DNA of 64,000 nt from Macrostomum hystrix (GCA_950097015.1 CATNEN010000010.1:3162001-3226000); one strand, 5' to 3'; positions 27,393 to 64,000 are shown, counted from the stretch's first letter. The notes: generated by a model from the letters alone, not told the origin. Translations and numbers: made by a program.

Positions 27393-27424
<32 letters not shown>

Positions 27425-39634: not shown

Positions 39635-40090
39635 ACGTGTTACTTTCGCGAAAACATAATTGGAGGATAGTGAAATCGAGGTAGAGTGAAGAGAGGATCA
39701 GATCGAAGGAAGGAAGAAAGGAAGGGGAGGAAGCTAGGACAGAGTGAAGGGAGGATATGAGAGTGAGACACCACCACCACCTACCCAACCACCTGCACTC
39801 TGCATCCACCCACCCAAATTCGTACGACTGATTAATTGTATTTATTGATTCATTGTACTGATGTGTTACTTTCGCGAAAACATATTCGGTGGATAGTACA
39901 GGAGGAAATTGATAGCGAGGGAGAGTGAAGAGAGGCTCAGGGTAGATCGAAGGAAGGAAGAAAGGAAGGGGAGGAAAGCGAAGGTAGGGGAGGAAGCTAG
40001 GACAGAGTGAAGGGAGGATATGAGAGTGAGACACCATGCACCACCTACCCAACCTGCACCTGCACTCTGCATCCACCCACCCAACACCAC
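39635..40090. repeat. Two diverged copies of a ~200-bp unit (GTTACTTTCGCGAAAACATA head, GAAGG purine tract, CACC/CCA pyrimidine-rich tail)
   Basis: Copies start near 39638 and 39865 and share GAAGCTAGGACAGAGTGAAGGGAGGATATGAGAGTGAGACACCA...CACCTGCACTCTGCATCCACCCACCC. Confidence 0.85.
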
Positions 40091-40236
40091 ACACCACACC
40101 ACACCACACCCTAGCTGCAGCACTCCAATTATAAGAGTTTATGGACTTAGAGAATTTACAATCTGTAAATTCTCGACCGTCCCAAGGCTTAAATAGAGTA
40201 GTGGGATCGAGGATGGATAGAGGGAGCCAGTTAGTA

Positions 40237-40562
40237 TATACTCTAAAGAAAGGTGCGCGCCGTATATATTACCGCCGTGTATATGCGGCCTCGCTAGTTG
40301 ACGTCGGCATAGGAAAGCTGCTACTCCACGGAAAAACCGCGCAGGCGCACCTTTCTTAAGAGTATAGACGTGGCTCGTGTGTGTATTCAAGTGGCAGCCA
40401 TGTAAGTCTATGGGACACGCAAGTCAATATATACTCTTAAGAAAGGTGCGCCTTGCTAAAAATAGAATCGCCCGGGGTTTCCCCGTGCAGCGGCAAGCCA
40501 GCTCGGCTATACTAGGCCCTATATCGAAAAAACAGCTCGCGCACCTTTCTTAAGAGTATATA
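40237..40562. repeat. Four alternating-orientation copies of TATACTCT(T/A)AAGAAAGGTGCGC forming nested inverted repeats
   Basis: Arms at 40237-40258 (fwd), 40345-40366 (rev), 40428-40451 (fwd) and 40539-40562 (rev); the last pair is a perfect 24-bp IR. Confidence 0.9.
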
Positions 40563-41247
40563 TATATACCTGCATGTATAGCATTTACTACTCCACCAGC
40601 CACACCAACTAAGCTCTTGGGACGGAAGATAATTTTATCACTGACATGATAAAATTCTCTAAGTCCGTAAACTCGAGTTTAAAATTATATAGATGTCAGA
40701 GGCCTGCTATATGTGATGGATGTCGATTCGCAAACTGACTTGACTGTGAATAGACTCAAATGCTGATGATTGTTGATGGAGGTATTTTCGCGAAAAGTGT
40801 ATTTATCGTTCGTGTATTTATTATGTATTTATATAAAATTAAAGTTGGTATTTGATTAACACATCTAAGTATTCAAAGTCGACAGTTCATGATGCCTGCA
40901 AATTTTTTAAACTACTTTTACATACACTAGCTCTCGTTCACCTACGTGGTAATATTCAAAGCATAAGACAGTTTGCCGTCTCTATTGACAATATATTGTC
41001 GCGTTCACCATTAATCATAATCAGATGACTGATGAGATCAGTCAGTCAGTAATAAAATATTAATACGCTAACACAGATGTGTGCAGCTAGTCAATCGGTT
41101 ATTAATAATACTGTTATTATTAAATTTCACCAATACATATATATAAAGTATAAATATATGTAGAATTTCATTGATTAAACAAATGATCGTGCTATTCTAC
41201 AATTAGTCTGATTTGCAAAGTCGCGAGAGCAAAAATAAACGTGTAAA

Positions 41248-41628
41248 CTATAATACATAAAATTCTGTATAAATTCTGTATTTTACAGCATTCATTGTTC
41301 GATGTACCAGTAGCGAACTCCATGTATGATGAGCTGTCATATGATACCAGTCATGTATGATACCAGTCACGAACAAGACAGCCTTATAGTCTTCTGCTGA
41401 CCGGTGCTGTTGCAGCCATTCTTGAGTGCGCCGTAATAATAAGCATAACTCATTAGCGCTATACTCAGCATTTGGAACACCGCGCTGCAAACTAGGTAGC
41501 TGCTCGAAGCACCCTCGATGCGCTATGAACCGGCCAATGCAATCTATGCGACAGCTGAGAAAGAGTTGAAATATGTGCGGGTGAAGATACATTTGCACTA
41601 ACTGCATCTGATGGGCAATGAACGACAT
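41248..41628 (-). pseudogene. Orphan helical protein family H, copy 1 (frameshifted C-terminus)
   Basis: Near-identical to 61735-62115 for about 90 aa. Then 69 bp are replaced by a 25-bp ATGATACCAGTC-type filler, shifting the frame. Confidence 0.7.
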
Positions 41629-41890
41629 GTTCAGTCAGTTAGTAAATCAAGCCAGCATAAAGCTAAAAAATAGTTAATTAAAAAATATTTTAAACTTGAA
41701 TCAAAGTCCCCATAGAGTATACTTTAGCAAACACAGCTGAGTCAGTCCACAGACAAATCAAATGAATACAGGCCAGTCTGGGAAATAAGAACAAGAAATA
41801 TCTTATCGGCCAAGAAATCAGCCCACAACCTACGCCACAGCAGCAGCAGCAGTAGCAACAGCTATTAGACTAATTGAAGACTAATTGAAA

Positions 41891-42282
41891 ATGGCAAGCA
41901 GCAGCAACAACAACAGCAGCAGCTGTTTTCATTTGTTCCCCGCGGCCTTCCGGGAACACGTCCTGGACTCCGCTGCAGCGGAGTTGGAATCCGCCCTACA
42001 TGATGCGAATAGCGCCGCGAGTTCATTGGCGTCAGCGGAGGCCTGGGCGCCCGGACGTCGCGGGGCGGAGGACGCGATGGCCGCAGCTATGCGGCGGGTC
42101 AGGGCGGACATGGTCCGCATGGCCCGGGCCCGCCGCATAGCGGCAGGGCTGGATCCATATGTGAGTAGTAGATTTCGATTCCTTTCATTTGAATATTTAT
42201 GAACTCATCTGATAACATCTGAGCTAACAAAATAAATGGAACCTAAAACCCATCCTTCATCCCGCAGCCGGGTGTGCTATGA
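41891..42282 (+). CDS. Orphan Ala/Arg-rich helical protein family R, copy 1; exons 41891-42160, 42268-42282
   Basis: Homolog of 62357-62739 (LFPAAFR..VL.SAAAELE...AEAW.P.RR.AE..M.AA.RRVRA.M.RMARARRIAAGLDPY). Donor TAT|GTGAGT and acceptor CCCGCAG|CCG GGT GTG CTA TGA are conserved in both copies. Confidence 0.72.
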
Positions 42283-43044
42283 GTGATCTGTAGCATGAGC
42301 ATTGAGGACCCGGTAAACCAGAAACCAGAAACCAGAACCAGAAACAGAAGCTGATTGATGAGAACTGATTGATTTGAATTGAATTGAATTGAATTGAATT
42401 GAATTGAACTGAGCTGATTGATGAGAATAAAATATAAAATATTGTTTGTTAGAGTTTTCACAATAAATAACTTCTTATCTTGGTTATTTATTTTATCATT
42501 TAAATAATATGAACTGACTGGCGGTTATGTGGTGTACATTGGCGATGAGACATACTACAATAGCGACGTAATCGTAATTGATCAGTCTGCAATATAATTT
42601 CAAGTAAAGTTTATACAAGTTTCTCATGTAAAAAAACATTAATAAAAACGGATTCGTTTAAAAAAGTAAAGTACAAACGCATAATAATATAGTATAATAT
42701 AATATATGCGCGCTGGATTGATGAACCACATCTCGACTGTGACATTGATTGCGTGTAGGAGACGACTAGTTGTAGCATGATAGTTTCGCTGGATTGCTTT
42801 CCTACGGCTAAAATGCGATGCGTTCTCTTCTACACAGCAATGACCCTTGAACCAGATGTCGCCGACATTGTCTAGTTGCTTGTACATGTGTTCAGATGCA
42901 ACGTGGTAGTCTGGGCCAGGCCAAGCTAAAAGTCGAGATTGAATTCGCCGAAATTGCATTTGAATTCGCACTGGTGAGGTGTCTATATGTTGCTAAAATC
43001 GCAGCAATTTAAATTCGGCAGTACTTCTCTATCCTGTTTTCAAA

Positions 43045-43263
43045 ATGCTGAGAGGACTTGCCATGCCAGTTCGTGCGGAACTGCTCAATACGGCTGCAGC
43101 AGCAAACCTTGGCATCACATTTCACACCTGGAGAATGGGAATTCTGAGACGTGAGGTGACGGTCGCCCTACAGCAGATCACACAGCAGAAGTGCTTGCAG
43201 TGGGCTAATCACACGGCAACCTACTTGAATCGCTGCCTGAATCATGAAGACATTTTGGCATAA
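43045..43263 (+). CDS. 72-aa hypothetical protein
   Basis: ATG in AAAATG context and non-repetitive protein-like composition; no homolog in the window. Confidence 0.35.
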   Translation: MLRGLAMPVRAELLNTAAAANLGITFHTWRMGILRREVTVALQQITQQKCLQWANHTATYLNRCLNHEDILA

Positions 43264-43726
43264 TTGATTGCTCTTTTCTTTGATCGTTCGGTTGACTTCA
43301 TTCTACTCGTACATCAGTTCGCAAACTTTGTTTCCTCTTTGATTGTTTCCCCTTCGAAGCTTTTTGTCCTGTCAAATGAATACAAGCCATTGGCGCGTAA
43401 CGCGAATTCAAATGAAATTTCGGCGAATTCAATCTCGCTTTTAGCTTAATTTCTATGGGCTTACTATTTTTAGACCACATTGGCTTCTATGGGAAATAGT
43501 TTTGCAGTTTCGGCGAATTCAATTGCAAAAAGGTATATTCATACATGAATTTTCGCGAAAAAGTTTGGTCTATAGCCAGACCTAGAACTACAGTCCAGTA
43601 CAGTCGCAAAAGTGAGCTATCTAAGACGGAGCGCGGTTAACAGATACTTTGTGACCGACTGACTGACTGACCGAGCGAGCAACCACATTTACGAGTTAAT
43701 TCCTACGCCTCGACTTTAAGTTTGAA

Positions 43727-43989
43727 ATGTCAGCATTTCGTGGCCGTGGTAAGAAGGCTCGTGTGGATGCCAGCATTGCTACATCGGATTCTAATGGTCT
43801 ACGCCAGACTAGGATCGTGGACTACTTTAGATCTGAGCAGTCAACCGATCGTCCTACTGGCAACTCAATTAGACCGAGTGGGCAAGCAGCATCGGCATCA
43901 TTCGCAGCACTGGCAGGAACGGCTGGCCGGGCATCGGCTGCCTTCAATGTTCCCCGCCGTGCAGCAGTAGTACAGCAGCAACAGCAACC

Positions 43990-44023
<34 letters not shown>

Positions 44024-46366
44024 ACTGTTATTACAACCGCAGTTCAGAAGCGTCGACGTGTCCGATCGACTCTACGCAAGCGGACGCGTGTAGTTGTCGA
44101 CTTGGATGCTTCGTCTAGCACTACATCGTCGTCTGATGCTGAAGACACTGGCGTTGGATCTTTGGTAGCCATGCGACAGCCTCTGGTTATTGCCGCACAA
44201 TCAATTGGTGGCGCCGGCGACCATGCTAATCGCATAGAGTCCACGCCTAAAGTGCTATCATCTGAAGATGACTCAGCGGACGACTTGCTAGCAGACGACG
44301 TACAGCTGGAGATTGTGGACGAGTGGACGAGCAATACAGACAATGTAGAGTCGAATACTGCCCCTGTTTTGACGGCTTCTAATAGTTCAGCCTTGTCATC
44401 GCAGCTAGTCGATGATAAGTACAAAACGGAGGTGGCAGAATTATTGCGCGCAAATGGCGAGTCGACTATTCCTAAAAATAGTGCCGCACTTGGTGCCTGT
44501 CCGACTTCGCCAGATTATGCGCCTCGCTCTACACCGGCAATGTCTGTCATCGAGAATGGGACAATATCCGATGATGATGAACCAGCTCTCGCAGTATTTT
44601 CTCCAGCGTATGTCGACGCTTTTGAATCAACAGCGCAACAGTCGGGACGACGGCAGCAATCGCAGCAGCAGCATCATCAGCGAGATCAACAACCGCAGCA
44701 GCGGCAACAGCAGCAGCAGCAAGTTGGTGGCGTGGCATTTGCTCCGATGAATATGCGTTGTGTCGTTCGACATCACCACTTCTATGTCCTCGAGCTCCAA
44801 TTACCGACTACGCCTCTTTAACAGCAGAGGGCAGGTCGGTTCTTATGACTAGAAGGACGCTACATCTTATAGAGATTGCATTCATCTCGAGCGATGTGGA
44901 AAAATTCAAGGCGTTTCTAGAAGATGAATTGGTAGCTCCATGTGCACAGTTTGCCATCGGCGCAACATCATGTATTCAAGTTGACATGCTGACCAGCGAA
45001 GAAATCCGAGCGCGTCGTCAGCAGAAATACAACATGTCAATCCGTGAATGTTTAGGAGCTCCGAATCATCCCAATGGTTTGCTGATGTTCCTGAACCTGC
45101 GCCAACCAGAAGATGGTTACACTGTTTACTGCGGACTGCATGCCCTTTTGATGGAATCTGCGGAAGCTTCGGCCTACCTGCATCCTACAATGTGTAGAAT
45201 GACAGTGTCTGGTGTACGCAGTGCGTCAAGTGCAATTAAGCTAGTTACCAGTACGGACGAGTTTCCAGCTCTTTTCCGCGTTTCTACTCAAGAGTGCAGC
45301 TTGCTGACCAAGGCCTTTTGCTGGGTTGCTGCTCATGAGACGTCATCTACTGAGCCTTTGCTAGATAGTGGCTTCATGTTCGAACACTTTCGTGTCAGAC
45401 AAGAGCTCAGCGATTACTTTAAGGTGACTCAGATGAAACGCGTAATAGCAACAGAGGTGCTAGCTGGTTGCCAAAACTGTCGCCCTACTGCCGCTGCCGC
45501 CGCCGCCGCTGCTGATGATGCTGCAACAGCCGACTATGCGAGGACGACCTTGCCTACTCAGCTGGAGGTATGCAAAATATTATAATACATGACATTTTTA
45601 GCACACGTACGAGTATTGATCATTGAATTTTTGCTGTTGTTTTAATTCAAATAATTATTACTTTTGGACAATTAATTAATTAATTGTATGCGAACCTACC
45701 TAACAACACAACACCATCCAACAGGTCTCTGCTGCTGCTGATGTTGCTGCTTCCGCTGCTACTGCTGTTCAAGTACTTGATGCCGCCGTCGCTCATGTTC
45801 CCCGGCTGATCGCCGCCGCCACCAACGTGTGCCCAACTGTAAAGGCTGTGTGCAGCGCGTTACAATCGCCAACTGGTGTCGTCTATCTATACGGCCCGTC
45901 TGGCGTTGGGAAGACCCACTCTGTGCAAAGCCATCTCGGTTCTACGAAAGTGCTGAATATCCAGGTGCAGAAGCGGTCTAACACGTTTATGTTTGACAAG
46001 CTCTGCGAGACTATACACACTGCCATGTTTATTGACGAGCTACGCCCGCAACTGTTTGATGACACATCTGAAGTCATGTGCACACTACTTCGTTTGGTCA
46101 ATGGAGACACTTTTGAAGTCAATGCTAAATACAAGGCTATTCGACACGTCTCTTGGCTCAATCGACTGTTAGTGCTTGCTGGGCATGCTCCGGTCAGTGC
46201 GTATTCGATGGACTTTCAGCGCCGATTAGAACCGACACCTGATGGGCACAAGCGTCCGGTAGTTGCCATCTTCATTGGTCATTCCCTCAGTACCGACTAC
46301 CAATGCGATGGACAATGCCACCCAATACGCAATGTGTTTGGCGATCACCCGGACCGGCGAGTATGA
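43727..46366 (+). CDS. Rep-like protein 1: low-complexity N-terminus (PIP box, NLS) + unknown conserved domain + SF3 helicase; -1 frame break near 44608-44633; intron 45568-45724
   Basis: GPSGVGKT (Walker A), MFIDE (Walker B), LLRLVNG..FEVNAKYK (B'), LVLAGH (motif C position) and FQRRL (Arg finger). Phase-0 intron GAG|GTATGC...CAACAG|GTC joins 44758-45567 to the helicase ORF. The middle domain aligns with Rep-like protein 2. Confidence 0.8.
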
Positions 46367-46729
46367 GCGACAAGACGGTGCTGTTAGCAGGTTTTTTTAC
46401 ACCAAACTGCCTGCATGCTGCTATTTTATCGACTATATTTTTACTCGGTCATTCAGTCAGTCTTTCAGCTGTTTTTTTATATTTTTTGCTGTTTCATACT
46501 GTTTTTGTATGCAATTTTATAATTAGTCATACAAATAAAATCAATTTAAATGCTCAGTTTTGAGCTTTTATTGTTGTGAAGTAGGTAATTGCTACTTCTG
46601 TTGCAAAAAATCATATTTCTTGCTAATTGTAGTCAATTGACTGATTAATGAAGCCCAACACGAATACAATAAATGTATTGAGCGTTTGCATGCATAAAAA
46701 TACAAACAATAGTTACGATAATCAGTAGA

Positions 46730-46860
46730 TTTATAATATAACTGCATAATGAATCATAGTGATTGTATTATTTTACATTCTGACGTTATGACGCCTCTGC
46801 TTCCTTCAACTGTGGCATACAAAAGCTCGTCCTCAACTGGGTCTTATGTGCAATTTTTCT
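46730..46860 (-). pseudogene. Single-unit remnant of the acidic-repeat gene at 59972-60532
   Basis: Reads DPVEDELLYATVE versus DPADDELLYAAAE; the downstream AT-rich flank (ATAACTG.A.TAATGAATCATAGT) is also shared. Confidence 0.65.
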
Positions 46861-47019
46861 ATATATAGTATTACTATCTTCAAACGAAGGTATATGCAAA
46901 GTGTCAAAGTATTGATTAATACAATTTATTTATAGGTGTTATCGCGAAAAAAAATAACGACTTCTAAACCAAAAGTAAATACGGAATTTTAGCGAAAAGA
47001 CTGATATGTTCTCAAAACG

Positions 47020-47690
47020 AAGGTAAGAGCAGTATTTTTGCAAAAGTTCTTAAAGTAGTGTGCATGGCTACATATTATGGTATTTTCGCGAAAATACTGA
47101 TATCCTATTAAACAGATGTAGTTGGCGGTATTTTTGCAAAAGTTATTAAAATAGGTAGTGGTGTGCATGGCTACATATTATGGTATTTTCGCGAAACTAC
47201 TGCTATGCTATTAAACAAAGGTAGTTGGCGGTATTTTTGCAAAAGTTATTAAAGTAGGTGTGTGCATGGCTATATATTATGGTATTTTCGCGAAAATACT
47301 GATATCCTATTAAACAGTTGTAGTTGGAAGGTATTTTTGCAAAAGTTCTTAAAGTAGTGTGCATGGCTACATCTATGGTATTTTCGCGAAAATACTGATA
47401 TGCTCTAAACGAAGGTAAGGGCATTATTTTTGCAAAAGTTCTTAAAGTAGTGTGCATGGCTACATCTTATGGTATTTTCGCTAAAATACTGCTATGCTAT
47501 TAAACAAAGGTAGTTGGCGGTATTTTTGCAAAAGTTCTTAAAGTAGGTGTGTGCATGGCTATATATAATGGTATTTTCGCGAAAATACATGCATATTATT
47601 AGACTAAGTATCTTGTACATTTTTAACCATAGACACATTTAGTATTTCTGCAAATTGCCAAGAGTCATGAGTGGATTTTTTTCGCGAAAA
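47020..47690. repeat. Array of ~94-105-bp units each containing palindromes TTTTGCAAAA and TTTTCGCGAAAA
   Basis: TTTTCGCGAAAA or a 1-nt variant at 47083, 47186, 47285, 47381, 47475, 47574 and 47679. Confidence 0.92.
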
Positions 47691-47874
47691 GACTATATGC
47701 TATCTATATATTGTAATGAATACCTGTGAATGAAAAATAATGACAGTTTTTTTGCAAAAATACTAACGATACGAAGATGAACATATTTTCCTCGCTCGCA
47801 CTCACTCTCTCTATTGAAATTGCAATAGCGGCAATTCAGCCCGGCTGTGTAGTCTATGGTTTTTTATGTAGCGA

Positions 47875-48257
47875 TTCTTATGCAGCAAAAGAGCCCGGCC
47901 GAGTCCCCTATGCTTTCTTATGCAGCAAAAGAGCCCGGCCGAGTCCCCTATGCTTTCTTATGCAGCAAAAGAGCCCGGCCGAGTCCCCTATGCTTTCTTA
48001 TGCAGCAAAAGAGCCCGACTCAACCCTTAATGCTTTCTTATGCAGCAAAAGAGCCCGACTCAACCCTTAATGCTTTCTTATGCAGCAAAAGAGCCCGACT
48101 CAACCCTTAATGCTTTCTTATGCAGCAAAAGAGCCCGACTCAACCCTTAATGCTTTCTTATGCAGCAAAAGAGCCCGACTCAACCCTTAATGCTTTCTTA
48201 TGGAGCAAAAGAGCCCGACTCAACCCTTAATGCTTTCTTATGCAGCAAAAGAGCCCG
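47875..48257. repeat. 40-bp tandem array (TTCTTATGCAGCAAAAGAGCCCG + 2 variant halves), ~9.5 units
   Basis: Period exactly 40. The first 3 units have GCCGAGTCCCCTA and the next 6 have ACTCAACCCTTAA. Confidence 0.95.
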
Positions 48258-48633
48258 CGACCCGCTTTGCTATAATTCTAAATTGATGACTACTGATAGC
48301 AATTGTTGCAGTGTTAGGTGCGAGATCGGTTGGCTGATTGAATACATATACCTGTCATGATAATTTTGTTTCAAATGGCGCAGTTGTGACAGCAGCGGAA
48401 TGCAGTTCGAACATTCTATGAAATGAGTTTCATGCAGGGTATTATCTTACGTTACATGATGACTGCAGCCCCATGCCACTGCCCGCACCTGAGTTAGGGA
48501 CCCATTTCGCACTGTGATGATCGATCGAAATTTTTCCAATATACTGTGGGATATATAGTGACTATAGCGGTATTAGCTAGTGTTAGACGCGTTGCTGCTG
48601 CACTCACGACATTGTTGGGTGCGTAGAACCACG

Positions 48634-49053: not shown

Positions 49054-49218
49054 CAGCAGCAAAAAGACTTAGCTAGACAGTTTAAATAACTTATCCCTGT
49101 TTGTGAACCCAAACCAACTCTGCACCAATAAAAGAATGGTTTAGTATCAACTAAGTTGGCAGATCCAACTCGATACCGGTAAGTTTATTTTTGATAACCT
49201 AAAAATAGACCGTATAAG

Positions 49219-54259: not shown

Positions 54260-54297
54260 AGCGTATAAAGCGCGCACATGTGCGCGCTTTATACGCT
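54260..54297. other. Perfect 38-bp palindrome AGCGTATAAAGCGCGCACA|TGTGCGCGCTTTATACGCT
   Basis: Checked base by base; it lies ~215 bp beyond the recombinase stop codon. Confidence 0.97.
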
Positions 54298-54512
54298 GCA
54301 GTAACATGCAGTCAAACGAATTCAATTATCCCTCCCTCGAAGGCCTGTGCATGTTTTCTCTGCGTGTTTTCTCTCTGTCCCGGCCCCCTTTATCTGCCCC
54401 ACGGTGTTTTTCACTCACTATTTAAATATTTAAATATATATATACTATATATATTGTATATATAAAATCTTAAATAAAGCAGGCAGACAGACAGGCGGGC
54501 AGGCAGGGCGAA

Positions 54513-57382
54513 TCAATCAAAATTATGCTCCGCCACTGAGTGCAGCCGCCGTCGCTTTCCGGCCACCGGTCTACCGTGCAGGACTGCGTCGGCTCGTTGG
54601 GTGCTCGCCGCCACCTCCCCACTTCCACCAGCCAGGCTGCTGATGAGTCCCTGGGTCGGCGGCCTAACTATTGGTCGCATCTCTGCGTCACCTGATGGCA
54701 CCACAAACCGGCGGACAATATCGCGGCTGCGAATTACTGTGCCCATCTCGGTGGCCATCTGGGCATTGTGCCCATAATTGTACCGGATGACAGCTGCAGA
54801 TGTGCCGTGCGCTCTGGCGAACATATCCAGCTGCTCCGGCTCCATCATGAGCACTACGGCACAGAGGGTGCGACGCCAGTGCGTGGCCACATAGTGCCGA
54901 CCCAGTACTCGCTGCCCGCCTGCGCTGATCATGCGGCTCATTGCCGACTGGCTGTACACACCGCCGAACACATCAATGAAGACGGTCGGCGACTCCGGTT
55001 GCTCGATGCCGCGAGCAGCAAGCGACGGCACGATATATTCGTCGTGCAGGCGCAGCAAGGCCTCGCAGAATAGATCCGGCAGCACCATCCTGGCTGGGTC
55101 GCCGGAGTGTCCGACCTTGTGCGGCACTTCACGCAGCGGCAGGACGAGATGCGAGTGCCCAGCCAGATCGGCAGCGGACGGCCCGCTCTCCCCATCTGCA
55201 CTTTGCGTGTGTTGGCGGAACAGCTGTTTTTGGTCGGCCGACGCGTTTCGCCGAACCGAACGGTCGACCAGGTGTCGCCGACGGATGTAGATCCACGGCA
55301 GGAGTCGCAGGGGCTGCTCAATGCTGCAGTAGAACAGCATCTCCTGCACAATCCTCCGCAGACAAACCATCCGGCGACTGAAGGCACCATCATCTGCTTC
55401 GCCGTTGTCTTTGGTGACATCAGCGATGCCATCAGCGACCACACCTGCTGCCTGCATGCCCCATTCGCCGTCGACTGGCAGCAAAGTCCAGCTGTGCCTT
55501 TGTAGCATGGCAAAAAAACGATCACGGCGGGCGAACACGGCATCGACCTCGTCCACGTTGACGTAGGTGTCCATGAAGGCCACCTGCCGCTCGTTGTGGC
55601 CAAGCTTGTAGACTGCCTGCATAGTATAAATGTGGTTGCGTTTACTTATAGTAGATAGCAGCACGAAACCAAATAGAACTAACTGTCATTAATGCAGCTG
55701 CTGTGCAGCTAGCTCACCTGCTGGATGGCGCGGACGTTGCCGAACTCGCCGCGAGCCTGCTGCACCACGCTGCTAAGGCGGGCGATGAGAGCCTGCTCAG
55801 CCGCCAGCGGGTTGTTGGCCTTCTGCGCCAACTGCATTCTCCAGCAGACGCCACTGCCGACAGAGTCGACGTCCTCAATAGCAGGGCGCTCGCTGTCAGG
55901 CGAGGGTGAGTCGATGCTGCAGAACAGCTCGGCTTCGCGCAAGCCAACGGCGGCCATGATGGCATTGGCGCCTCGCAGGCCCCTCACGCGCAGCCAGCCC
56001 TCCATGCAGCGGCAGATGCTGACAAGCTCCTGGCACTTGCGCGCAGCAGTCGACTGGGCCAGCTGCATGGCATCACCGACTGTTTCAGCGCTGAAGCAGT
56101 CCTGCACCCTGTCCGGCTGAAGCAGCAGGTCTGCAAGCGATATGCCCGCTCGCTGCCAGGTGCGTAGAAGCGTCGAGCTCACGGACCTGCTGATGTCGCG
56201 CCAACGCTGCTGGTGGCACAAGTTGGCCGCAATCCTGGCCCGCGATGGGTCCCTCCACCATAGCTCCCGCAGGCGTTCCACCGTTGCGGAGATGCTGGGC
56301 CGGTCACCCAACGGCTGCAGCAGCTCTGGTGGCACGGGCTTCGCAGGTGGCGACGTGCGAAAGTGTCGACAGCGCGGACCGCGACGCTGTTGCTGCTGCT
56401 TCTGATCGGCTGTCGACGCTTCCTGCTGCAGTTCTGCTCCGAAGATGGACAATCGAAGCCGGTCGAATTCGGCATTAGCCAGCCTTCTCTTTGCAGCAGT
56501 CCACTTTGCTGCAGCTGCTCGACGCTGCCTCGGCGGGGTAGCTGCCAGCTTCACTAGCGGCCTCTGTGCAGCTGACAGCACAGCCGATGACGTGCTGGGA
56601 CGACAAAGTGCTGCCTTGGTGGCCTGCACCGCCAACTGCAGACAGGCAGCCGAAGAGGAAGACTCTGCTGCCACCGTCTGGACCGTCGGCAGCGTCCGCA
56701 TTCTGATGCTGGTTCCGGGCAGCAAGCCGACATCGTCATCTCCATCATCGTCATCGTCAGCGACTACGGGGGCCTCCTGTGAGGACATCAGCAGCAGCGG
56801 CGCAGTCGGGTCAAATAGGCGTCGCCGGACGGCTGGACGGCTGGCTGACAACAGCCGAGCACTGGCCGCTGACTGTCGACCGTCAACGGACGGCGCGGCG
56901 ATGCTGTAGAGCTCGGCCAACAGAGACCCAGCCTCGTATTCAGCTGGTTCTGCCTCTGAAGGCTGCTGCGGAGGCGGTGGTGGCATCTGCTGCGGAGGCG
57001 GTGGTGGCATCTGCTGCGGAGGCTGTGGCTGCTGGTGTTCCACAGCAACGGTAGCGACAATAGCTGGCACTGCTGGACACCTGTGCTGCCTTGCTGTCCT
57101 ACGCAGCACCTTGCCGCAGGCTGGGCACGCGTGTACATGCTCAGTGTTGGCTGAGCTGCGCGTGTGGGTGCTGCACGTCAGGCAGAGCCAGACCATCTGG
57201 GCACGCTGCTTGGCTGACGCCGCTGCCCAAGATGCCTCGGACGGCCGCACCTTGACTGGGGCATCCTCGAGTCGGAATTGGCGCACAGCCTCCTCCGCGT
57301 GCCTCCTCAGGAAGTGGCGTTTCGGGTGCGTCTGCGGTCTGCCGTCGCCACAGAAGATGCAGCACGACTCGTTGTCTGTCAT
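54513..57382 (-). CDS. Zinc-finger tyrosine recombinase (~920 aa); exons 57382-55718 and 55616-54513
   Basis: C-terminal catalytic pattern: R (IEQPLRLLPW), K (VPHKVGH...RMVLP), VFIDVFGGVYS, HxxR (THWRRT), ARAHGTS..VIRYNY (GTS variant, Tyr nucleophile). Phase-0 intron CAG|GTGAGC...ATGCAG|GCA. N-terminal CIFC..H....H, CLTC and CPAC..H.C zinc fingers. Confidence 0.8.
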
Positions 57383-58499
57383 AGCTATTGTTATTACAAA
57401 TTGATGCAGTGCCATATAGGTGTATGAACTGAATTCAGTATGCATGCAACACATGCTATATACAGTCCGTTGTGCGTGCATCTAAATAAATATATATATG
57501 CCCCTTTATCCCATTATGGAATACACTATTTTAAGTGTTGTGCGCGCACATTGTCCCGTACTGTTGTCATCGCTGCTGCATTTATATTCGATTGAGTGCT
57601 GCGTTGAGCACATAAATCACTTATTTTTCTGTTGTCCCTAACAACAACAACAACAACAACAACATCCCGGCTGTAAAAATTATAAGCCTCTGAATCATTT
57701 ATAAATTTTAAAAACAAAATTTTTCATTTGCAATGTAGTACAATCAGCTCAGACATTCGATTTTCCAGTGAACAGCACACCCACCCCCTCCAACTCGATC
57801 TTCCTCCCTCAAAAGCAGTGCCGAGCCAGCCAGACAGACCTGCAGATGGAAAGAGAGACGACTTCGATCGTCTTCAGTCTATGGCCACAGGGGTGACATT
57901 ATCGATTGGTTAAAGCAGACACACTGCTTCTCTTTTTCAAGGCAGAGCAGTGGCCTTCCACACCCTTTTACCATAGACTATGAATTTAGAGACAGGGCCG
58001 CCCCCTTTCGCTTTCGAAGGTTTAAAGAAAGGGTGGCAAGCAAAGTAGCAGTCTTTTAGTTTTAGCCCGGCCCAACTGCTCGATCGAACTGCAGCTTACA
58101 GTCAAATATAATTCAGAGATTCATCCACAATTCGAATCAACAGTCTGCCTTCTATTTGCTTGGACTATATTAAAACAGGCTACAGATATAATATCGACAG
58201 AGAGCCACAGGATCTATTATTATGTCAACAGCAAGCATTAGGATCTAATATATTTCTAGGCAGCTCAGAACTGCATAACACTTACAGAGATTACTAATAT
58301 ATTATAATTATAGAGAACTGCATGCGCTATTATCTATTAGATTAACAGACCGATTGTTATATGTATACAAATACTAATTGAAGGGCCTATTATATATACA
58401 AAGACTAATCTGAGGGCCTATTATATTAACACAGCTTGTAATGCATATTTATGAACAGATACTTATATGGCCTATTTAAAATACATAGCCTTTTTCTTA

Positions 58500-59120
58500 T
58501 TTGCAGCGCAACAGACAGCATCAGCAGAAGCATCAGCAGAAGCAACCGACAGCATCAGCAGAAGCATCAGCAGTAGCAGCAGTAGCAGCTCAGTAGCAGC
58601 TCAACAGCTCTAGCAGCATCAGTACCAGCAGCCAGCCCCATCTGCCCGTGCCCACTTCGAGGTGCAGCAGAAGCAGCAGTACCAGCAGCCAACCCCGTCC
58701 GCCTGTGCCCACTTCGAGGTGAGATAAAAATTAAATTGTACAGCTGGATAGCATTAGTTAGCCTCAGCAACTATATTCGAGTAGACTTTAGCGTCGAAAT
58801 TATATTCTAATTGCTTTTTTCCATGCTCATCCTCAGCTCAGTGCAGCTAAACCGGCCGGCACCAGCCAGCAGCATCAGTAGCCGAAGCCAGCCCCGTCCG
58901 CCTGTGCCCATTTGCCAAGCAGCAGCAGTAGCAGCAATAGCAGCAGTAGCAGCAGTTGCAGCACAAGCAGCAGAAGCAGCAGTACCAGCAGCCAGCCCCC
59001 GTCCGCCTGTGCCCACTTCGAGGTGAGATAAATATTCAATTGTACAGCTGGATAGCATTAGTTAGCCTCTGCGAAATATAATCGAGTAGACTTTAGCATA
59101 GAAATTATATTCTAATTGCC
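58500..59120. repeat. Low-complexity CAG/GCA region with a duplicated ~140-bp block ending in a splice-donor-like GAG|GTGAGA
   Basis: CAGCAGCCA.CCCCGTCCGCCTGTGCCCACTTCGAGGTGAGATAAA...CTAATTGC occurs at ~58680-58815 and ~58985-59118. Confidence 0.75.
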
Positions 59121-59971
59121 TTTCCGTGTTTTTTGCTTGTCGTCGCTGCCGCCGCCAGTCAAAGTTAAATCAAATTATTGAATGTCATAAGACATAGAGT
59201 CTGTGTCAATCAGTGTCAATCAGTCAGTCAATCGATCTCGAACGAAACAATACATTCAGTATACTGTACACTGCTGCTGCTCTAATGCAATATCAATAAC
59301 GAGAGAAAAAGAGTGCTTGCGAGCAAAGCCATAGAGGAAGCGTGGTCTTCCCAGTTCTAAAAATAGCTGCAGAGCTAGCGCGTGAATTTAAATACGCGTG
59401 AATTTAAATACACTGTTTACGTTGCTATAAACGAGAGAAGATGAAAGTGATTTTAGGAAGGCCTTAATGTTCATTTTTTGTCTTAATCTGACTTCCGAAT
59501 AAATAAATCTAAATAGTAAGCTAAATGGAGCAGAACTGAACTGCTGCGCACTGAAATATAAGCGCTATACGAAAATTGCTATTTGCGTTTCAATGAGGCC
59601 CAAATGGCTCTCCGAAAAGACCGAATAATGAGTCGAAAAAAGCTGGGCAAAAATCTGAAAATTAGGAAAGTATAGTGACATATTTTTGCGAAAGAACATG
59701 TTCTAAAACAAATACAAACTGCTGTATTTATGCGAAATTGCATTGAGCATTAAAATAATATGAACGTTTACAAACAAAAAAATACAAACAATAATGCTTA
59801 CGTTTGTGCTTATGATTGTTGGTGATGGTATTTTCACGAAAAGATTAGTGTATTTTCAATCACTAACAAAACAACACCAATATGTATATCAAATCGTTAT
59901 GATAATCAGAGGCTTTATTTATAAAATAACTGTAATGAATCATAGTTTCTGCATTATTTTATAATATAATT

Positions 59972-60532
59972 TCAAACGTATGCCTCCGCCTCTTCAGCTG
60001 CGGCATACAATAGGCAGTCGTCAGCTGGGTCAAATAAACAGCTACTGGCTGCCATCGCTGCCGCTGCTGCTGACGCCTCCGCCTCTTCAGCTGCGGCATA
60101 CAAAAGCTCGTCATCAGCTGGGTCAAACAAGCAGCTACTGGCTGCCATCGCTGCCGCTGCTGCTGACGCCTCCGCCTCTTCAGCTGCTGCATACAAAAGC
60201 TCGTCATCAGCTGGGTCAAATAAACAGCTACTGGCTGCCATCGCTGCCGCTGCTGCTGACGCCTCCGCCTCTTCAGCTGCTGCATACAAAAGCTCGTCAT
60301 CAGCTGGGTCAAAGCAATTGGCTGCCATCGCCGCTTCGACCTCTTCAGCTACGGCGTATAACAAATGGTCGTCTGCCAGGCCGAATACAAAACTGTATGT
60401 TGAATTGTATGTTTCATCATACCCGTAGTCATCATAGCCTGGCTATTCATTCAGCTCAACGTCATCGTCGTGACAGTTGGATTTTTCCGCATCGTTTAGA
60501 GTTGGCCCTGATGATGATGTTGATGTAGGCAT
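59972..60532 (-). CDS. Acidic tandem-repeat protein (LFDPADDELLYAAAEEAEASAAAAAMAASSC x3-4, 90-bp units); one in-frame TAG near 60443 after ATG 60532
   Basis: The repeat preserves the frame and amino-acid motif. The upstream frame MPTSTSSSGPTLND...LNE*PGYDDYGYDETYNSTYSFVFGLADDHLLY continues into it. Confidence 0.6.
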
Positions 60533-60766
60533 GGCGAGACAATGGGGGCAGTATTTAAAATGTTGAACTTGTTTTATTTACTTCATTAATTGTCCAAAGT
60601 TTCAACTGCATTGATTACATATTCCCAATCACATAAGATTATCAGCAATCTTGTTACCATAGACTAGAAATAGGGTTTTTAGTTGGTTACTTTACTAAGG
60701 TAAGTGGCGTAACTTATTTACACATTTTAGATTCTTAATTATTGTTTCAAATAAAAAAACTACAAC

Positions 60767-61224
60767 ATGTCATCCCTGGGTGGGCGGCACAATGGCGGAG
60801 ATCGAGATCGAGATATCGACAGAGAGGATCACAACTCTGGCAACGACAAACCGATCTCGTGCCCTACCGTCAGTAGCAGCACGGATGTCGTGATTGGCAC
60901 TGAGCGACGTCGACGAAGGCACAGCTCGGATAGTAGTTCAGACTCCGATTTTGCTATATTCTGCCTTCACGTCAACGTGTTCAGTACGTATTGCATCGTC
61001 CAGGTGTCGTGCGCATTTACAATCAGAGATTTTCTATTGTGAACGCCAATCCGACACGTGATTTAGCCGGCCAATTGCAACTGCCGCAGCATGCGCAAGT
61101 GACCGATATACAGTCACCAATTGTAAGCAGTAGCAGCAGCATCAACAATGGCGGCACTGGCACTGAAAGACAGCGCGGCAATGCCAATCGTGCTGCTAAT
61201 AACCCAGATTTGAATGACATGTAG
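60767..61224 (+). CDS. Hypothetical protein in two overlapping frames (60767-61042, 60991-61224); frameshift or unrecognised intron
   Basis: ATG in ACAACATG context, RS/DS-rich N-terminus with RRRRRH, and an overlapping second frame; no homolog recognised. Confidence 0.35.
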
Positions 61225-61734
61225 CAATTCTTTTGTTAAGCACTGTTGCCATTAGTTATAATGAAATTAATTAACTGAATAATATAATTAAAAGTTGGTA
61301 TTTGATTAACACATCTAAGTATTCAAAGTCGACAGTTCATGATACCTGCAAATGTTTTAAACTACTTTTACATACACTAGCTCTCGTTCACCTTCACGTG
61401 GTATATTCAAAGCATAAGAGTTTGCCGTCACTATTGACAATATATTGTCGCGTTTACCATTAATCATAATCAGACGACTGATGAGATCAGTCAGTAATAA
61501 AATATTAATACGCGAACACAGATGTGTGCAGGTAGTCAACCGGTAATTATTAATACGGTTTTTATTAAATTTCACCAATACATATAGAGTATAAATATAT
61601 ATAGAATTTCATTGGTTGAACAAATAATCGTGCCATTCTACAATTAGTCTGATTTGCAAAGTCGCGAGAGCAAAAATAAACGTGTAAACTATAATACATA
61701 AAATTCTGCATATAAATTCTGTATTTTACAGCAT

Positions 61735-62115
61735 TCATTGTTCGATGTACCAATAGCGAACTCCATGTATGATGAGCTGAAGTTCAGCTTGGGCTTCCTC
61801 TAAAAGCTCTAGCACTTCGATGATGTCTTGTGCTTCATCGTCTCTTACACCAGTCACGGACAAGACAGCCTGATAGTCTTCTGCTGACCGGTGCTTTTGC
61901 AGCCATTGTTGAGTGCGCCGTAATAATAAACATAGCTCATTAGCGTTATACTCTGCATTTGGAACACCGCGTTGCAAACTAGGTAGTTGCTCGAAGCACC
62001 CTCGATGCGCTATGAACCGGCCAATGCAATCTATGCGACAGCTGAGAAAGAGTTGAAATACGCGCGGCTGAAGATACATTTGTACTAACTGCATCTGATC
62101 GGCAATTAACGACAT
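61735..62115 (-). CDS. Orphan helical protein family H, copy 3 (126 aa, intact)
   Basis: ATG..stop intact; homologous to 48634-49053 and 41248-41628. Confidence 0.8.
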   Translation of the reverse strand: MSLIADQMQLVQMYLQPRVFQLFLSCRIDCIGRFIAHRGCFEQLPSLQRGVPNAEYNANELCLLLRRTQQWLQKHRSAEDYQAVLSVTGVRDDEAQDIIEVLELLEEAQAELQLIIHGVRYWYIEQ

Positions 62116-62356
62116 GTTCAGTCAGTTAGTAAATCAAGTAAAGCAAAAAATAGTTTTGTCTAAAAAAATTCTAAACTTTAATCAAAGCCCACATAGAGTA
62201 TATTTTTTCGAACACAGATGAGTCAGTCCACAGACAAATCCAATGAATACAGGCCAGCCAGGGTATTAAGAACAAGAAATTTTTTATCGGCCAAGAAATC
62301 AGCCCACAACCAAACTTCGCAAGCAAAGCAGCAACAACAGCACAACAACAGCAGCT

Positions 62357-62739
62357 ATGTCTACTTTCCCATTATTCCCGGCGGCGTTCCGGCACTACGT
62401 ACTGGCGTCAGCCGCCGCCGAGTTAGAAGACGCAATGAGATCAACCATGGAGGTGGCAATGGAGGTAGCGGCGGCGGAAGCCTGGACGCCGGAACGGCGC
62501 CGGGCTGAAGAAAATATGACAGCCGCTATACGGCGGGTCCGGGCGGCCATGTTACGCATGGCCCGGGCCCGTCGTATAGCGGCAGGGCTGGATCCATATG
62601 TGAGTAGTAGATTTTGATTCCTTTCATTTGAATATTTATGAACACATCTGAATTGTAACATCTAAGCTACTAAAGGAAACCTAACAAAATAAATGAAACC
62701 TAAAACCCATCTTTCATCCCGCAGCCGGGTGTCCTATGA
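62357..62739 (+). CDS. Orphan family R, copy 2; exons 62357-62599, 62725-62739
   Basis: Homolog of 41891-42282 with the same donor and acceptor and the terminal PGVL*. Confidence 0.72.
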
Positions 62740-63642
62740 GAACCAGAGAACCTGGTTCAACACCAACAACACCAGCCGATCTGAGACATTCAATCGTTTC
62801 TCTTTGATAACTTTACCTCCTTTGTTATCTTACTGTCAATACTGATTGGTCATACATCTCTGATACTGATACTGAAACGGATACATAAATAAATCAAAAC
62901 AATAAAACTGATTAAATGATTGAATGATTAAATTATTCATGCTAATCTCGTCAATACGTGTTATGAATCGTTCTGTTATTTTATTACGTCTATTATTAAC
63001 ATTTGTGCGACAATAAGAACTCACTAACTGACAAGCAAAAAGAAACGAATTTTCGAGATGCATTATTCCTTGTACATTATTGTACATTATTGTACATTAT
63101 TCAGCCATATAAGTTAGTTGGATAAGTTTGAAAAAGTAAAGTACAAACGACGAATAAATTATTATACACTTTCGTATCGCTAAATATAAGATGTTACAAG
63201 ATGCACTTTTAAAACGTGCAGACTATAGGTATGTAGTGCATTAAATTGTGCGTATTTTACCAAAGACATGTCTGCTTGGTACAGCTCGATTTTTCGCTAT
63301 TTTTTATGTTCTTCGCATCCAAATTTTTCTTTCGAAAATACAGTCAGATGTTTTTGGCCGTAGACACAAAAAACGGCTGCATATAATTCATATTGTATGC
63401 AGTATTTTTGCAAAAGTTCTTTAAGTAGCGTGGCCATATCTATGGTATTTTCGCGAATATAGCCAGACATTTCATCTATAATTAGTATTTGCGCACTGCC
63501 AAAAACTTTTTCGCGAAAGTACATACGTATTCTTAAGTCAAAACGACTATGATCGTTGACTACTTGAGATCTGTGCATATTGTGCCAGTGGTAAAAAGGT
63601 AAGAAGGCTCTTGTGGAAGACAGTATCATTAGCCATCGTTAC

Positions 63643-63714
63643 CATCGGGCCGTACGTTAGCCAGATTTCAGTTTTTTTCTGAAAGCTTTCATCTGGCTAA
63701 CGTACGGCCCGATG
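63643..63714. other. Perfect 24-bp inverted repeat with 24-bp spacer (hairpin)
   Basis: CATCGGGCCGTACGTTAGCCAGAT ... ATCTGGCTAACGTACGGCCCGATG; the spacer holds a further TTCAG/CTGAA mini-stem. Confidence 0.95.
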
Positions 63715-63817
63715 ATAATGTGAGCATTAGCCAGCCCTGCTCTGCACCCGGACATCCCCGCGTTTCAAAATATAAATATACCGGACTGCTATGGTATTGT
63801 AGTGTATAGTGATTCGG

Positions 63818-63961
63818 TGTGACGGTTCAGTGGTTCACATACTGCGACATGTCACATACTGGTTGAACAGTATAATGTATTTTCGCGTCCTTCAACGGAA
63901 GCTGCTAAGATATCTGCTGGCTATGTGACATGTCGCAGTATGTGAACCACGAACCGTCACA
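63818..63961. other. ~40-bp inverted repeat (one bulge) flanked by ~40-bp direct repeats
   Basis: TGTGACGGTTCAGTGGTTCACATACTGCGACATGTCACATA ... TATGTGACATGTCGCAGTATGTGAACCACGAACCGTCACA; TGCTCTGCACCCGG...CGTTTCAAAATATAAATA at ~63738 and ~63963. Confidence 0.92.
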
Positions 63962-64000
63962 TTGCTCTGCACCCGGTCACCCGTTTCAAAATATAAATAA

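Follow-up and report, generated by a model that had tools for sequence, protein, structure and literature searches.

What fills the right-hand part of the window, the 64,000-nucleotide stretch of Macrostomum hystrix DNA analysed here? An initial annotation had proposed one element of more than 24 kb at 39,635-64,000. We find that this flatworm region is multi-copy foreign DNA built from two nested related modules, A and B, each with its own helicase gene. The annotated genes are real, but the partition of motifs and the joints that skip B speak against a single element. The modular nature was recognised correctly, as the majority joints skip B or skip RepB. The proposed bounds have to be moved: the read depth in DNA run X1 jumps from 93-105 to >800 between 38,932 and 39,155, left of the annotated start, and the right end is not closed within the window.

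Features of blocks A and B

39,046-47,789: left part of block A, left end uncertain (~36.8-39.15 kb); depth rise; 14 TTTCGCGAAA-type sites
39,633-40,084: local duplication (79%, self-comparison) with two TTTCGCGAAA sites
40,230-40,568: two inverted-repeat cassettes with T[AT]A[AG]G-N4-GTGCGC, putatively origin-like (fold z -4.8 and -6.8; 0/200 shuffles each)
41,251-41,634, minus: orphan gene H1, a truncated H2 paralogue (86% to H2 over 95 aa)
41,891-42,282, plus: orphan gene R1, predicted intron 42,161-42,267 (70% to R2; GT-AG sites common with R2)
42,642-43,442: two ORFs (117 aa, minus; 88 aa, plus) and a 41-bp inverted repeat (42,929-42,969/43,402-43,442); no Pfam match at E<=10
43,727-46,366, plus: RepA, with disordered N-terminus, novel central domain and SF3 domain; intron 45,568-45,724; broken near 44.75 kb, where it is split across two frames (HHalign; spliced X3 contig)
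46,708-46,843, minus: acidic-repeat gene remnant, 72% to 59,892-60,031
46,986-47,588: non-coding array of ~6 units (~99 bp apiece), TTTCGCGAAA lying within an 18-bp palindrome in every unit; putatively iteron/hr-like (repeat analysis)
47,781-47,792: left B junction, predicted recombination site; core repeat 47,781-47,789, right arm 47,783-47,792 (joint with 9 shared letters)
47,790-59,686: block B, 11.9 kb, missing from most A copies (joint depth, motif partition, GC)
47,875-48,257: 40-bp tandem array, 9.6 copies (repeat analysis)
48,634-49,053, plus: orphan gene H3 (45% to H2 over 112 aa); an X3 contig of depth 41 spans 48,207-48,880
49,219-49,351: cassette upstream of RepB, an inverted repeat holding two GTGCGCGCAC sites (z -7.1)
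49,650-52,442, plus: RepB (~900 aa), frames open, C-terminal SF3, predicted intron 51,220-51,303 (HHalign; P0001 70%)
53,938-54,052: another GTGCGCGCAC cassette, matching the first at 73% (z -8.8)
54,260-54,297: perfect 38-bp palindrome, left arm replaced in the depth-347 variant
54,513-57,382, minus: predicted tyrosine recombinase (YR), frames open, zinc fingers at the N-terminus and a predicted intron at 55,617-55,717 (Atlas 0.95; residues by eye)
57,529-57,549: the fifth GTGCGCGCAC site, 5' of the YR gene (motif search)
58,500-59,123, plus: duplicated low-complexity units with splice-like sites, possibly a further gene (self-comparison)
59,664-59,686: right B junction; left arm 59,664-59,673, 6-bp spacer, core repeat 59,678-59,686 (joint)
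59,687-64,000: right part of block A, end beyond the window (depth; 4 TTTCGCGAAA-type sites)
59,972-60,442, minus: acidic-repeat ORF, 93-bp unit, 3.6 copies (ORF and repeat analysis)
61,735-62,121, minus: orphan gene H2 (paralogy with H1 and H3)
62,357-62,739, plus: orphan gene R2, predicted intron 62,600-62,724 (paralogy with R1)
63,297-63,638, minus: 113-codon frame overlapping one array-like unit; a diverged X3 contig spans 63,131-63,623
63,639-63,961: two long hairpins, which may belong to A (z -12.5 and -11.7)

The three annotated H genes are indeed paralogous (H1/H2 86%, H3 42-45%), but H1 is truncated after ~95 codons. The R genes form a pair at 70%. Only one acidic-repeat gene is an ORF; its supposed second copy is the 136-bp remnant.

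One motif grammar had been claimed for the whole of 39.6-63.5 kb. Allowing at most one mismatch, we counted 19 TTTCGCGAAA sites in the window against 1.8 expected (0/100 shuffles reach 19): 14 in A-left, 4 in A-right, one in the host part and none in B. The corresponding count for GTGCGCGCAC was seven against 1.8 expected (0/100 shuffles reach 7), and its exact form occurs five times in B and nowhere else. The grammar is thus not shared, as neither motif crosses between the blocks. What does recur is T[AT]A[AG]G-N4-GTGCGC, with 4 matches in A and 5 in B; the Markov null of a near-identical pattern had a mean of 0.37 and a maximum of 2 among 60. The GC content is 0.52 in B versus 0.43/0.41 in A.

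Copy excess and joints that skip block B

All eight element contigs listed for X1, which may be the source sample, have depths of 460-916. Host DNA shows 72-98 in three contigs at position 21-27 kb and 86-128 at 31-39 kb, and A-right exceeds 1000 in each bin up to 64,000. Contig depth is not copy number; the step of ~6-12 fold, together with diverged paralogues (70% and 43%) elsewhere in the M. lignano protein set, sets the region apart from single-copy host DNA. Available text of PMC10733133 describes polyploidy with three subgenomes. This does not account for the element depth, because the host bins sum every allele at >=90% (79-98 outside repeats). Element depth scales alike in X1 and a second run, X2, a pattern as compatible with integrated copies as with episomes.

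Most A copies lack B and have 47,780 joined directly to 59,678. This empty site, whose search the annotation had suggested, was found in both runs with 9 shared letters, at depth 586 in X1, where the shorter side spans 45 letters, and at 6.4 in X2. A variant that bears the YR but lacks RepB (joint 49,443>54,270) has a depth of 347. Comparing B contigs with the window, we find 0 differences in 534, 855 and 487 letters; the majority RepA contig shows 9 letter differences and 8 gaps in 1546. The near-identical B contigs, next to a window RepA that is broken and unlike the majority, fit a recent arrival of B in an older copy of A. Among the listed contigs, the only one to span the host-element boundary at 38.9-39.05 kb does so with a 24-letter side.

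One predicted SF3 helicase per block

RepA and RepB are paralogues, as annotated, with 48.5% identity over 136 aa in the helicase domain and 27% over 201 aa in the preceding domain. In-frame GT-AG introns are present in both, as in YR, R1 and R2. Performing HHalign against 42 CRESS-type Reps, a set picked by a motif partly present in RepA/RepB, we obtained an SF3 match from Walker A to motif C (97.2%, E 3.5e-11, 105 columns); the central domain gave 0.1% with the same profile. PF00910 and PF19263 remained below the cut-off (E 0.004-0.016). Without Walker A, the RepA score lies within shuffles (52/300 reach it), and the scores of RepB and its M. lignano paralogue P0001 are reached by 0/300. Motif C is AGH in all four helicase copies instead of the TSN of CRESS Reps, and helicase activity is therefore a prediction.

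Profile comparison gave no alignment of RepA/RepB to the HUH part, and neither an HUH nor a YxxK motif was found; a structural remnant of the endonuclease is possible. A polymerase or primase domain was not detected in either protein. The annotated twin Reps without nuclease are thus SF3-type with no HUH domain detected, but they do not share one element; one helicase per module is the better reading. Both retain Walker A/B and the central domain despite 27-48% identity, and each block has its own palindromic motifs, which suggests selection on a helicase-origin pair.

A contig of the RNA-like run X3 (record 17) skips the RepA intron. Another, diverged X3 contig ends at 51,218, beside the predicted start of the RepB intron. 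Pieces of RepA, H3 and YR are present in X5, from a second study, and likewise point to transcription.

The predicted recombinase and the ends of block B

What was annotated as a spliced zinc-finger YR is a large gene on the minus strand that has Cys/His zinc-finger motifs, residues in YR order and an in-frame GT-AG intron. Its predicted identity rests on the language-model match and this motif order. The first Atlas hits are YR clusters (0.95; recognition 2672), the best being a Nucleocytoviricota EsV-1-213-like cluster, and by eye the exon-2 frame contains R127, K190, H269-x-x-R272, H293 and Y302. Searches of Pfam, PHROGs, NCBIfam and PDB sequences returned no match to the YR, and in Pfam its exons matched none of DUF3504, GCR1_C and DUF3435; weak zinc-ribbon matches were seen for the gene. 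A profile of 44 Xer-like integrases gave 0.7%, within shuffles. Two structure predictions, YR included, reached a pLDDT of 33 only.

A 9-bp direct repeat, with copies at 47,781 and 59,678, marks the limits of block B; no long TIR or LTR surrounds the block. Its ends, once joined, would give a YR-site-like 10-6-10 inverted repeat with a 9/10 arm match around 6 bp; control junctions reach at least 9 of 10 in 71/4112 and 78/5000 cases (null ~2%). Excerpts of PMC3212892 give 11-13-bp inverted repeats with a 6-8-bp spacer for YR sites. The matching left arm is absent from the A target. In an insertion-direction test, the empty site fitted the A array with a score of 36 (6/758 controls reach it), but the B-right/A-right junction of the window fitted it too, scoring 41. 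In the suggested search for a circle junction, no contig among the joints listed (15 of 95) runs from the right end of B to its left end. A B contig at depth 522 tracks 59,059-59,680 and then departs from the window sequence, where an exact circle junction would suggest 59,677 or 59,686.

Proposed mechanism and alternative explanations

We give an even chance to the following reading: block B leaves as a circle, is copied via its own helicase and host polymerases, and is inserted in the block A repeat array, the region being a multi-copy composite of two related elements. Directly observed are the copy excess, the separate A form, the 9-bp terminal direct repeat, the motif partition, the SF3 relationship and RepA splicing. 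The YR would join the B ends at a site made up of a 6-bp spacer between two inverted arms of 10 bp each. Each Rep would assemble into a ring helicase, use the unclassified central domain to bind the palindromic repeats of its own block (TTTCGCGAAA arrays in A, GTGCGCGCAC cassettes in B) and open the origin without nicking. Origin opening without a nick is also the mode of papillomavirus E1 and polyomavirus large T. Block A, with no recombinase in the window, would borrow the YR of B or enter the genome through repair. Modules would be lost or shuffled between repeated cassettes, and no virion would be made. If true, this is a plasmid-like parasite of a kind not found in the literature searched.

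Since neither A end is closed, a fragment of a larger virus is possible. We consider it unlikely, though a real prospect, that both blocks belong, as pieces or segments, to a larger DNA virus with a capsid (polinton-like, multipartite or other), its structural genes lying outside the window or among the orphan ORFs. Such an origin would suit the best Atlas match of the YR and the H, R and four small ORFs, which are unclassified. It would also suit the pairing of YR and SF3 helicase in polinton-like viruses (available text of PMC12220804) and the C2H2 zinc fingers of nimaviral YRs, some of them multi-exon (excerpts of PMC10871703). Yet B looks complete between its direct repeats with three clear genes only, and the helicase is CRESS-like with no primase/polymerase fusion as far as detected. 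Window ORFs (A runs past the window) have no capsid, packaging ATPase, protease or polymerase match in Pfam/PHROGs/NCBIfam, which served for capsids in place of specialised capsid HMMs. This agrees with the annotation, which had recognised no capsid, packaging ATPase, polymerase or reverse transcriptase gene. IMG/VR holds no relative of helicase, YR or H, and none was found outside Macrostomum lignano.

It is distinctly improbable that B is a Crypton-like cut-and-paste transposon whose cargo, the helicase gene and H, came from A-type sequence, with copies made by transposition instead of helicase-driven replication and A an older endogenous virus-derived repeat serving as its target. The YR and short terminal direct repeats fit the broad Crypton definition (PMC13465315 and PMC3212892, as far as available), some Cryptons have an extra peptidase gene (excerpts of PMC3212892), and the RepB-less form at depth 347 keeps the YR. 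Mere cargo fits poorly with diverged Reps in which Walker A/B and the central domain are both retained, and with a palindromic motif set per block, and the word helicase has 0 mentions in the available portions of both papers.

We find little to recommend an old immobile virus-derived region, amplified through tandem or segmental duplication, with the 9-bp repeat a chance microhomology deletion. The window A copy shows decay in H1, RepA and the acidic remnant, 9-bp AT-rich repeats are frequent (4112 pairs in 39-64 kb) and the depth ratio is alike in two samples; against this stand three B genes with open frames and near-identical copies, a sharp depth step at the element edge that leaves out the host flanks, several discrete module-skipping joints, spliced transcripts and the paralogues elsewhere. 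An assembly chimera, in which a free episome or co-sequenced virus was fused to host DNA to give the A-B nesting, is barely credible: the nested path at 59.68 kb is a minority versus both majority paths and a host contig stops at 38,932 beside a 143-bp duplication, but the window A copy is decayed in a way of its own that the majority form does not share, 37,006 is linked to 39,046 by a joint at single-locus depth (95), and paralogues lie on a 220-kb contig of an older assembly.

Comparison with known systems

DIRS, Ngaro and VIPER elements are characterised by a reverse transcriptase with RNase H and by LTRs that are split or inverted; no ORF scanned matched a reverse transcriptase. In Starships, a DUF3435 captain is the first gene. 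Block B resembles them, and bacterial integrative elements and plasmids, as a putatively YR-mobilised multi-gene block with replicase and integrase logic, but it has no DUF3435 match, its YR is internal, the host is an animal and conjugation genes are absent. Protelomerase linear replicons combine a ResT/TelK enzyme with a conserved replicated-telomere palindrome. B has the 38-bp palindrome, altered in a common variant, and a ResT/TelK cluster is at Atlas rank 23 for its YR (0.93).

CRESS-DNA viruses have an N-terminal HUH endonuclease with motifs I-III and a nonanucleotide origin in a stem-loop. The Reps of these viruses and parvoviruses, endogenous copies included, share the C-terminal SF3 that aligned to CRESS Reps. 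Unlike them, our proteins have no HUH domain detected, a changed motif C and three times the length, on an element of at least 12 kb without a conserved nonanucleotide stem-loop; nonanucleotide matches at 46,866, 41,441 and 61,928 lie in none of the listed hairpins.

PEVE measures ~7.5 kb; its two helicases differ in origin, and it is not known to encode a YR. Set against PEVE by description, and PIVE, the likeness lies in the flatworm host, the virus-like element and the helicase genes; unlike in PEVE, the two helicases here are paralogues on separate modules, and protein searches with the element genes returned no PEVE protein. Excerpts of PMC3198968 group the integrated planarian PIVE and the PEVE small segment with parvoviral proteins, PEVE not being found integrated. 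Endogenous nimaviruses have a zinc-finger YR, as predicted for B, sometimes multi-exon, that targets repeats in an invertebrate, but they span hundreds of kb with naldaviral core genes (PMC10871703, available text), which were not detected here.

Polinton-like (PLV) and MELD viruses differ from A and B, whose genes have spliceosomal introns and a CRESS-like helicase, with no capsid, packaging ATPase, protease, TVpol or primase detected and no long terminal inverted repeats. Polintons, PLVs and MELD viruses carry a double-jelly-roll major capsid, penton and packaging ATPase. Their replicases (pPolB, TVpol-S3H, primase-helicase) are likewise unlike RepA/RepB, which have no polymerase or primase domain detected. 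The likeness is a YR (predicted here) and an SF3 helicase in one integrated element (PMC12220804, PMC8502044 and PMC11071296, in the parts available), with the YR of B nearest NCLDV-type clusters by Atlas.

Block B shares with Cryptons a YR gene (predicted), short terminal direct repeats and a proposed circular intermediate (excerpts of PMC3212892 and PMC13465315). Its 9-bp repeat is longer than the 4-6 bp reported in the available text of PMC3212892. Unlike Cryptons, B has a gene for a 900-aa SF3 helicase plus an orphan gene, bears origin-like cassettes and would target a sister element. CryptonA, F and S have DUF3504 or GCR1_C, with the YR alone or beside a C48 peptidase; the YR of B has neither these nor another Pfam match, and a helicase gene is present. 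Membership of a named Crypton group is thus not supported, while at the integration step B would work like a Crypton.

Gene content of the element region

The genes listed in the initial annotation were all found in the element region, with one correction: of the two copies stated for the acidic-repeat gene, one is an ORF and the second is only a 136-bp remnant. We divide the region into two blocks. Block A (~39.1-47.8 kb and 59.7-64 kb) carries the helicase gene RepA, the orphan genes H1, H2, R1 and R2, and TTTCGCGAAA-type repeats. Block B (47,790-59,686) carries the orphan gene H3, the helicase gene RepB, a predicted zinc-finger tyrosine recombinase (YR) gene and GTGCGCGCAC cassettes. The helicase genes are:

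43,727-46,366, RepA, SF3 helicase gene of block A
49,650-52,442, RepB, SF3 helicase gene of block B

RepA, RepB, YR, R1 and R2 each contain introns with GT-AG boundaries that keep the frame. The three H copies show identities of 86% and 42-45%, H1 being truncated, and the two R copies are 70% alike. H3 and H2 differ at the three codon positions in the ratio 50/32/65, with the fewest differences at position 2, which is the pattern of coding sequence. The window's RepA is broken across two frames near 44.75 kb, where small indels separate the window from the contigs of all four sequencing runs used below. H had no PDB match below E 0.37 and none in PADLOC or IMG/VR, and no Rfam family was found in 36-64 kb. 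A sigma-70 promoter scan, not relevant to an animal host, stayed at chance level.

RepA and RepB are related SF3-type helicases with no HUH match detected

Comparing the two helicases, we find a common central domain (27% over 201 aa), a P-loop domain that is 48.5% identical over 136 aa, and long, unalignable N-termini. The P-loop domain matched a CRESS-type Rep profile (42 sequences kept from 78 frames; 106 IMG/VR loci) with 97.2% probability (E 3.5e-11) across Walker A, Walker B, B' and motif C; this score is biased, as the CRESS set was picked by a motif overlapping B', and the comparison covers the CRESS set only. When Walker A was left out, RepB and the related Macrostomum lignano protein P0001 still outscored 300 of 300 shuffles, while RepA did not. 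Motif C reads AGH in all four helicase copies.

The Reps had been described as nuclease-less. The central domain matched the HUH region at 0.1% and had no family match, so the description holds at the sequence level only. The same domain yielded nothing usable in the ESM Atlas (recognition 1672), and the single-sequence structure prediction of RepB exon 2 had a mean pLDDT of 32.6.

The helicase relatives in the databases are two M. lignano proteins only. P0001 is 70% identical over 60% of RepB exon 2. P0002 bears the annotation of a G-protein-coupled receptor protein but contains a decayed RepA-like stretch with 43% identity to the helicase; its gene model has probably been fused across a further element copy. 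We rejected a metagenome match (a Lon-like bacterial frame), the short, Walker-A-centred matches in 4 of 44 prokaryote genomes, and four plasmid records at E 0.2-0.7.

The zinc-finger gene is very probably a tyrosine recombinase

Judged from its sequence, the zinc-finger gene very probably encodes a YR. In its exon, R127, K190, H269-W-R-R272, H293 and Y302, as assigned by eye, follow the canonical order. In the ESM Atlas (recognition 2672), it matched an NCLDV cluster (EsV-1-213-like), one with PF00589 and one from molluscs at 0.95, and the ten best family-bearing matches have one family or clan in common. We found no match in Pfam, PHROGs, NCBIfam or PDB sequences, nor to a Xer-like integrase profile built on 44 of 120 loci, and no relative among 7997 scored candidates, in IMG/VR or in phage records. 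The predicted structure of the exon from its single sequence had a mean pLDDT of 33.0.

The element lies at higher depth than its host flank, and RepA is spliced

We read copy number and structure from the assembled contigs of four public runs (X1, X2, X3 and X5; four of the eight listed). A joint a>b denotes a contig that jumps from window position a to b, and depth is contig read depth. The flanking DNA contains:

3,145-7,742, ASC amiloride-sensitive channel gene (E 8e-24), satellite-filled introns
18,000-22,300, minus strand, ZER1/ZYG11-like host gene; intron 21,534-21,768 skipped in X3 and X5
23,770-24,060, short interspersed repeat of extremely high abundance (X1 bin depth ~160,000)
27,351-31,225, tandem pair of 1.96-kb Helitron 3' fragments that are 97% alike, with a Pif1 2B domain (E 2e-19); depth very high
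31,900-35,500, transposase-like multi-exon gene, weak DUF3504 match (E 0.022), depth near single-locus
37,007-39,045, 2-kb T-rich insert, 6-letter repeat at its edges

The Helitron fragments have an empty-site joint (27,355>31,215) in X1 and X3. The transposase-like gene, which we take to be KDZ/CxC-like, is spliced in X5 (33,373>33,458), and one allele joins 32,660>35,288. The T-rich insert contains a 143-bp direct repeat (37,714-37,856 and 38,903-39,045, 99%) and is bypassed by the X1 joint 37,006>39,046 (depth 95, with a shorter side of 24 letters). It is probably a separate mobile element at the left edge of A, and the short ORFs to its left and right may be part of A.

Host contigs in X1 had depths of 79, 72 and 98, with no differences over 7290, 2103 and 1250 letters, respectively. 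The flank as far as 38,932 stayed at 86-128, bar one short contig at 333 within the 2-kb insert. The eight listed element contigs reached 460-916, roughly 6-12 times the host, where contig depth is not equal to copy number and X1 is possibly the source sample. The X2 assembly contained the element at depth 6-12 and no unique host DNA.

X3 and X5 have no record as RNA and are labelled RNA-like solely from intron skipping, which ZER1 shows in both. RepA is spliced: a 2489-letter contig of X3 spans it with the intron removed. The same run has H3 in a contig at depth 41, RepB in a diverged contig ending at the predicted donor site, and two YR contigs at depth 2-3, one of which crosses the predicted intron unspliced. 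X5, from a second study, yielded pieces of RepA, H3 and YR. Short pieces of 58,004-58,889 match a contig with depth 87 (single-locus) in X1 and 257 in X3; the contig may stem from a related and strongly transcribed locus elsewhere.

Most copies of block A lack block B

The joint 47,780>59,678 provides an empty-site form, lacking the 11.9-kb block B. This joint, with nine shared letters and a depth of 586 in X1, is also present in X2 and is the strongest listed within the element; thus, most A copies lack B. At depth 522, one B contig tracks 59,059-59,680 and then continues into 33 letters foreign to the window. Taken together, these contigs indicate that the window is a minority co-integrate. 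Two further forms were assembled, one without RepB (49,443>54,270, depth 347) and one placing the acidic gene directly after RepA (46,778>60,071, depth 182).

Block B has a 9-bp direct repeat at both ends. Inverted copies at 59,664-59,673 and 47,783-47,792 (9 of 10 letters) would flank a 6-bp spacer on end joining; such a score was reached at 71 of 4112 and at 78 of 5000 control junctions. These ends fit the YR-site and Crypton-end descriptions in PMC3212892, the 10-bp arms being one short of the stated range. We saw no end-to-end B joint among the 15 of 95 joints displayed, and the depth-522 contig departs three letters off the position expected of an exact circle junction. No matching left arm is present at the A site. 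As the B contigs are near-identical to the window and A is decayed, a recent insertion of B is favoured.

The DNA motifs segregate by block

The initial annotation had proposed a motif grammar shared across the region. Both motifs are indeed enriched (TTTCGCGAAA, 19 against 1.8 expected; GTGCGCGCAC, 7 against 1.8; 0 of 100 shuffles reaching either value), but they are partitioned rather than shared. Across A-left, B and A-right, TTTCGCGAAA-type sites number 14/0/4 and exact GTGCGCGCAC 0/5/0. A longer AT-rich-plus-GTGCGC motif occurs nine times, mostly as inverted pairs and never outside the element. Seven cassettes and hairpins gave fold z-scores of -4.8 to -12.5, which only confirm them, since they were picked for being inverted repeats.

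The 99-bp array (46,986-47,588) was rejected as a coding repeat, since every one of the six frames has stops and its units vary from 94 to 103 bp in length. A rolling-circle nonanucleotide origin was rejected too. The TTTCGCGAAA of this array presumably resembles a palindromic E2F site, and by that analogy could couple the element to the S phase of stem cells.

Proposed mechanism and alternatives

We infer excision, circles, replication and protein-DNA specificity, as follows. The YR would excise B via end joining, RepB would load at the GTGCGCGCAC cassettes and unwind the B circle for host polymerases, and the YR would re-insert B copies, here into the repeat array of A. Block A, with its RepA and TTTCGCGAAA arrays, would be a sister replicon, one in which no recombinase is seen within the window. 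As a whole, we hold this to be the most likely mechanism, with about an even chance of being right.

That the blocks are parts of a larger capsid-encoding virus is unlikely, and is the strongest alternative. According to PMC12220804, PMC8502044 and PMC11071296, polinton-like and MELD viruses have YR and helicases together, yet are defined by capsid genes and polymerase/primase fusions; the YRs of nimaviruses, whose genomes are far larger, possess zinc fingers and in some cases several exons (PMC10871703). A Crypton-like transposon carrying passive cargo is a weaker candidate. The integration step of B would be Crypton-like and B has the short direct repeats; however, no group-defining domain was found in B, and the word "helicase" is absent from the available portions of the Crypton papers (PMC3212892, PMC13465315). 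Passive duplication is very improbable, and an assembly chimera is more remote still.

Relation to known systems

The comparison with PEVE/PIVE (PMC3198968, PMC6186406, PMC9241645) covers their published descriptions. The terms virus, viral, Crypton and extrachromosomal do not occur in the accessible part of PMC10733133, and that of PMC6431247 gives no such element. We found no description of the element in the open literature searched; Repbase, Dfam, subscription papers and supplements could contain one. The YR-plus-SF3 elements are a real, active-looking and apparently undescribed family among YR DNA elements. Tentatively, and with the chances against it, they may form a family of integrative plasmids of the animal nucleus that lack capsids and bear introns: modular replicons, each with a nuclease-free, CRESS-derived SF3 helicase and its own palindromic origin code, replicating as circles and co-integrating through the virus-type YR with each other and the host.

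The host is a laboratory stem-cell model, where circles, origin specificity and site-specific integration are directly testable, and flatworm transgenesis could benefit from a native integrase that has a short site. The helicase and DNA motif, diverging in parallel in A and B, offer a natural test of an SF3 helicase working without an HUH nuclease. If true, our proposal would provide a living model of how a Rep loses nicking en route to E1/large-T-type initiators, and a eukaryotic counterpart to the integrative plasmids of bacteria. To our knowledge, the described animal YR DNA elements either carry little besides the recombinase (Cryptons) or are full capsid-bearing viruses; an element that combines a YR with a replicative-type helicase of its own and lacks virion genes would bridge the two.
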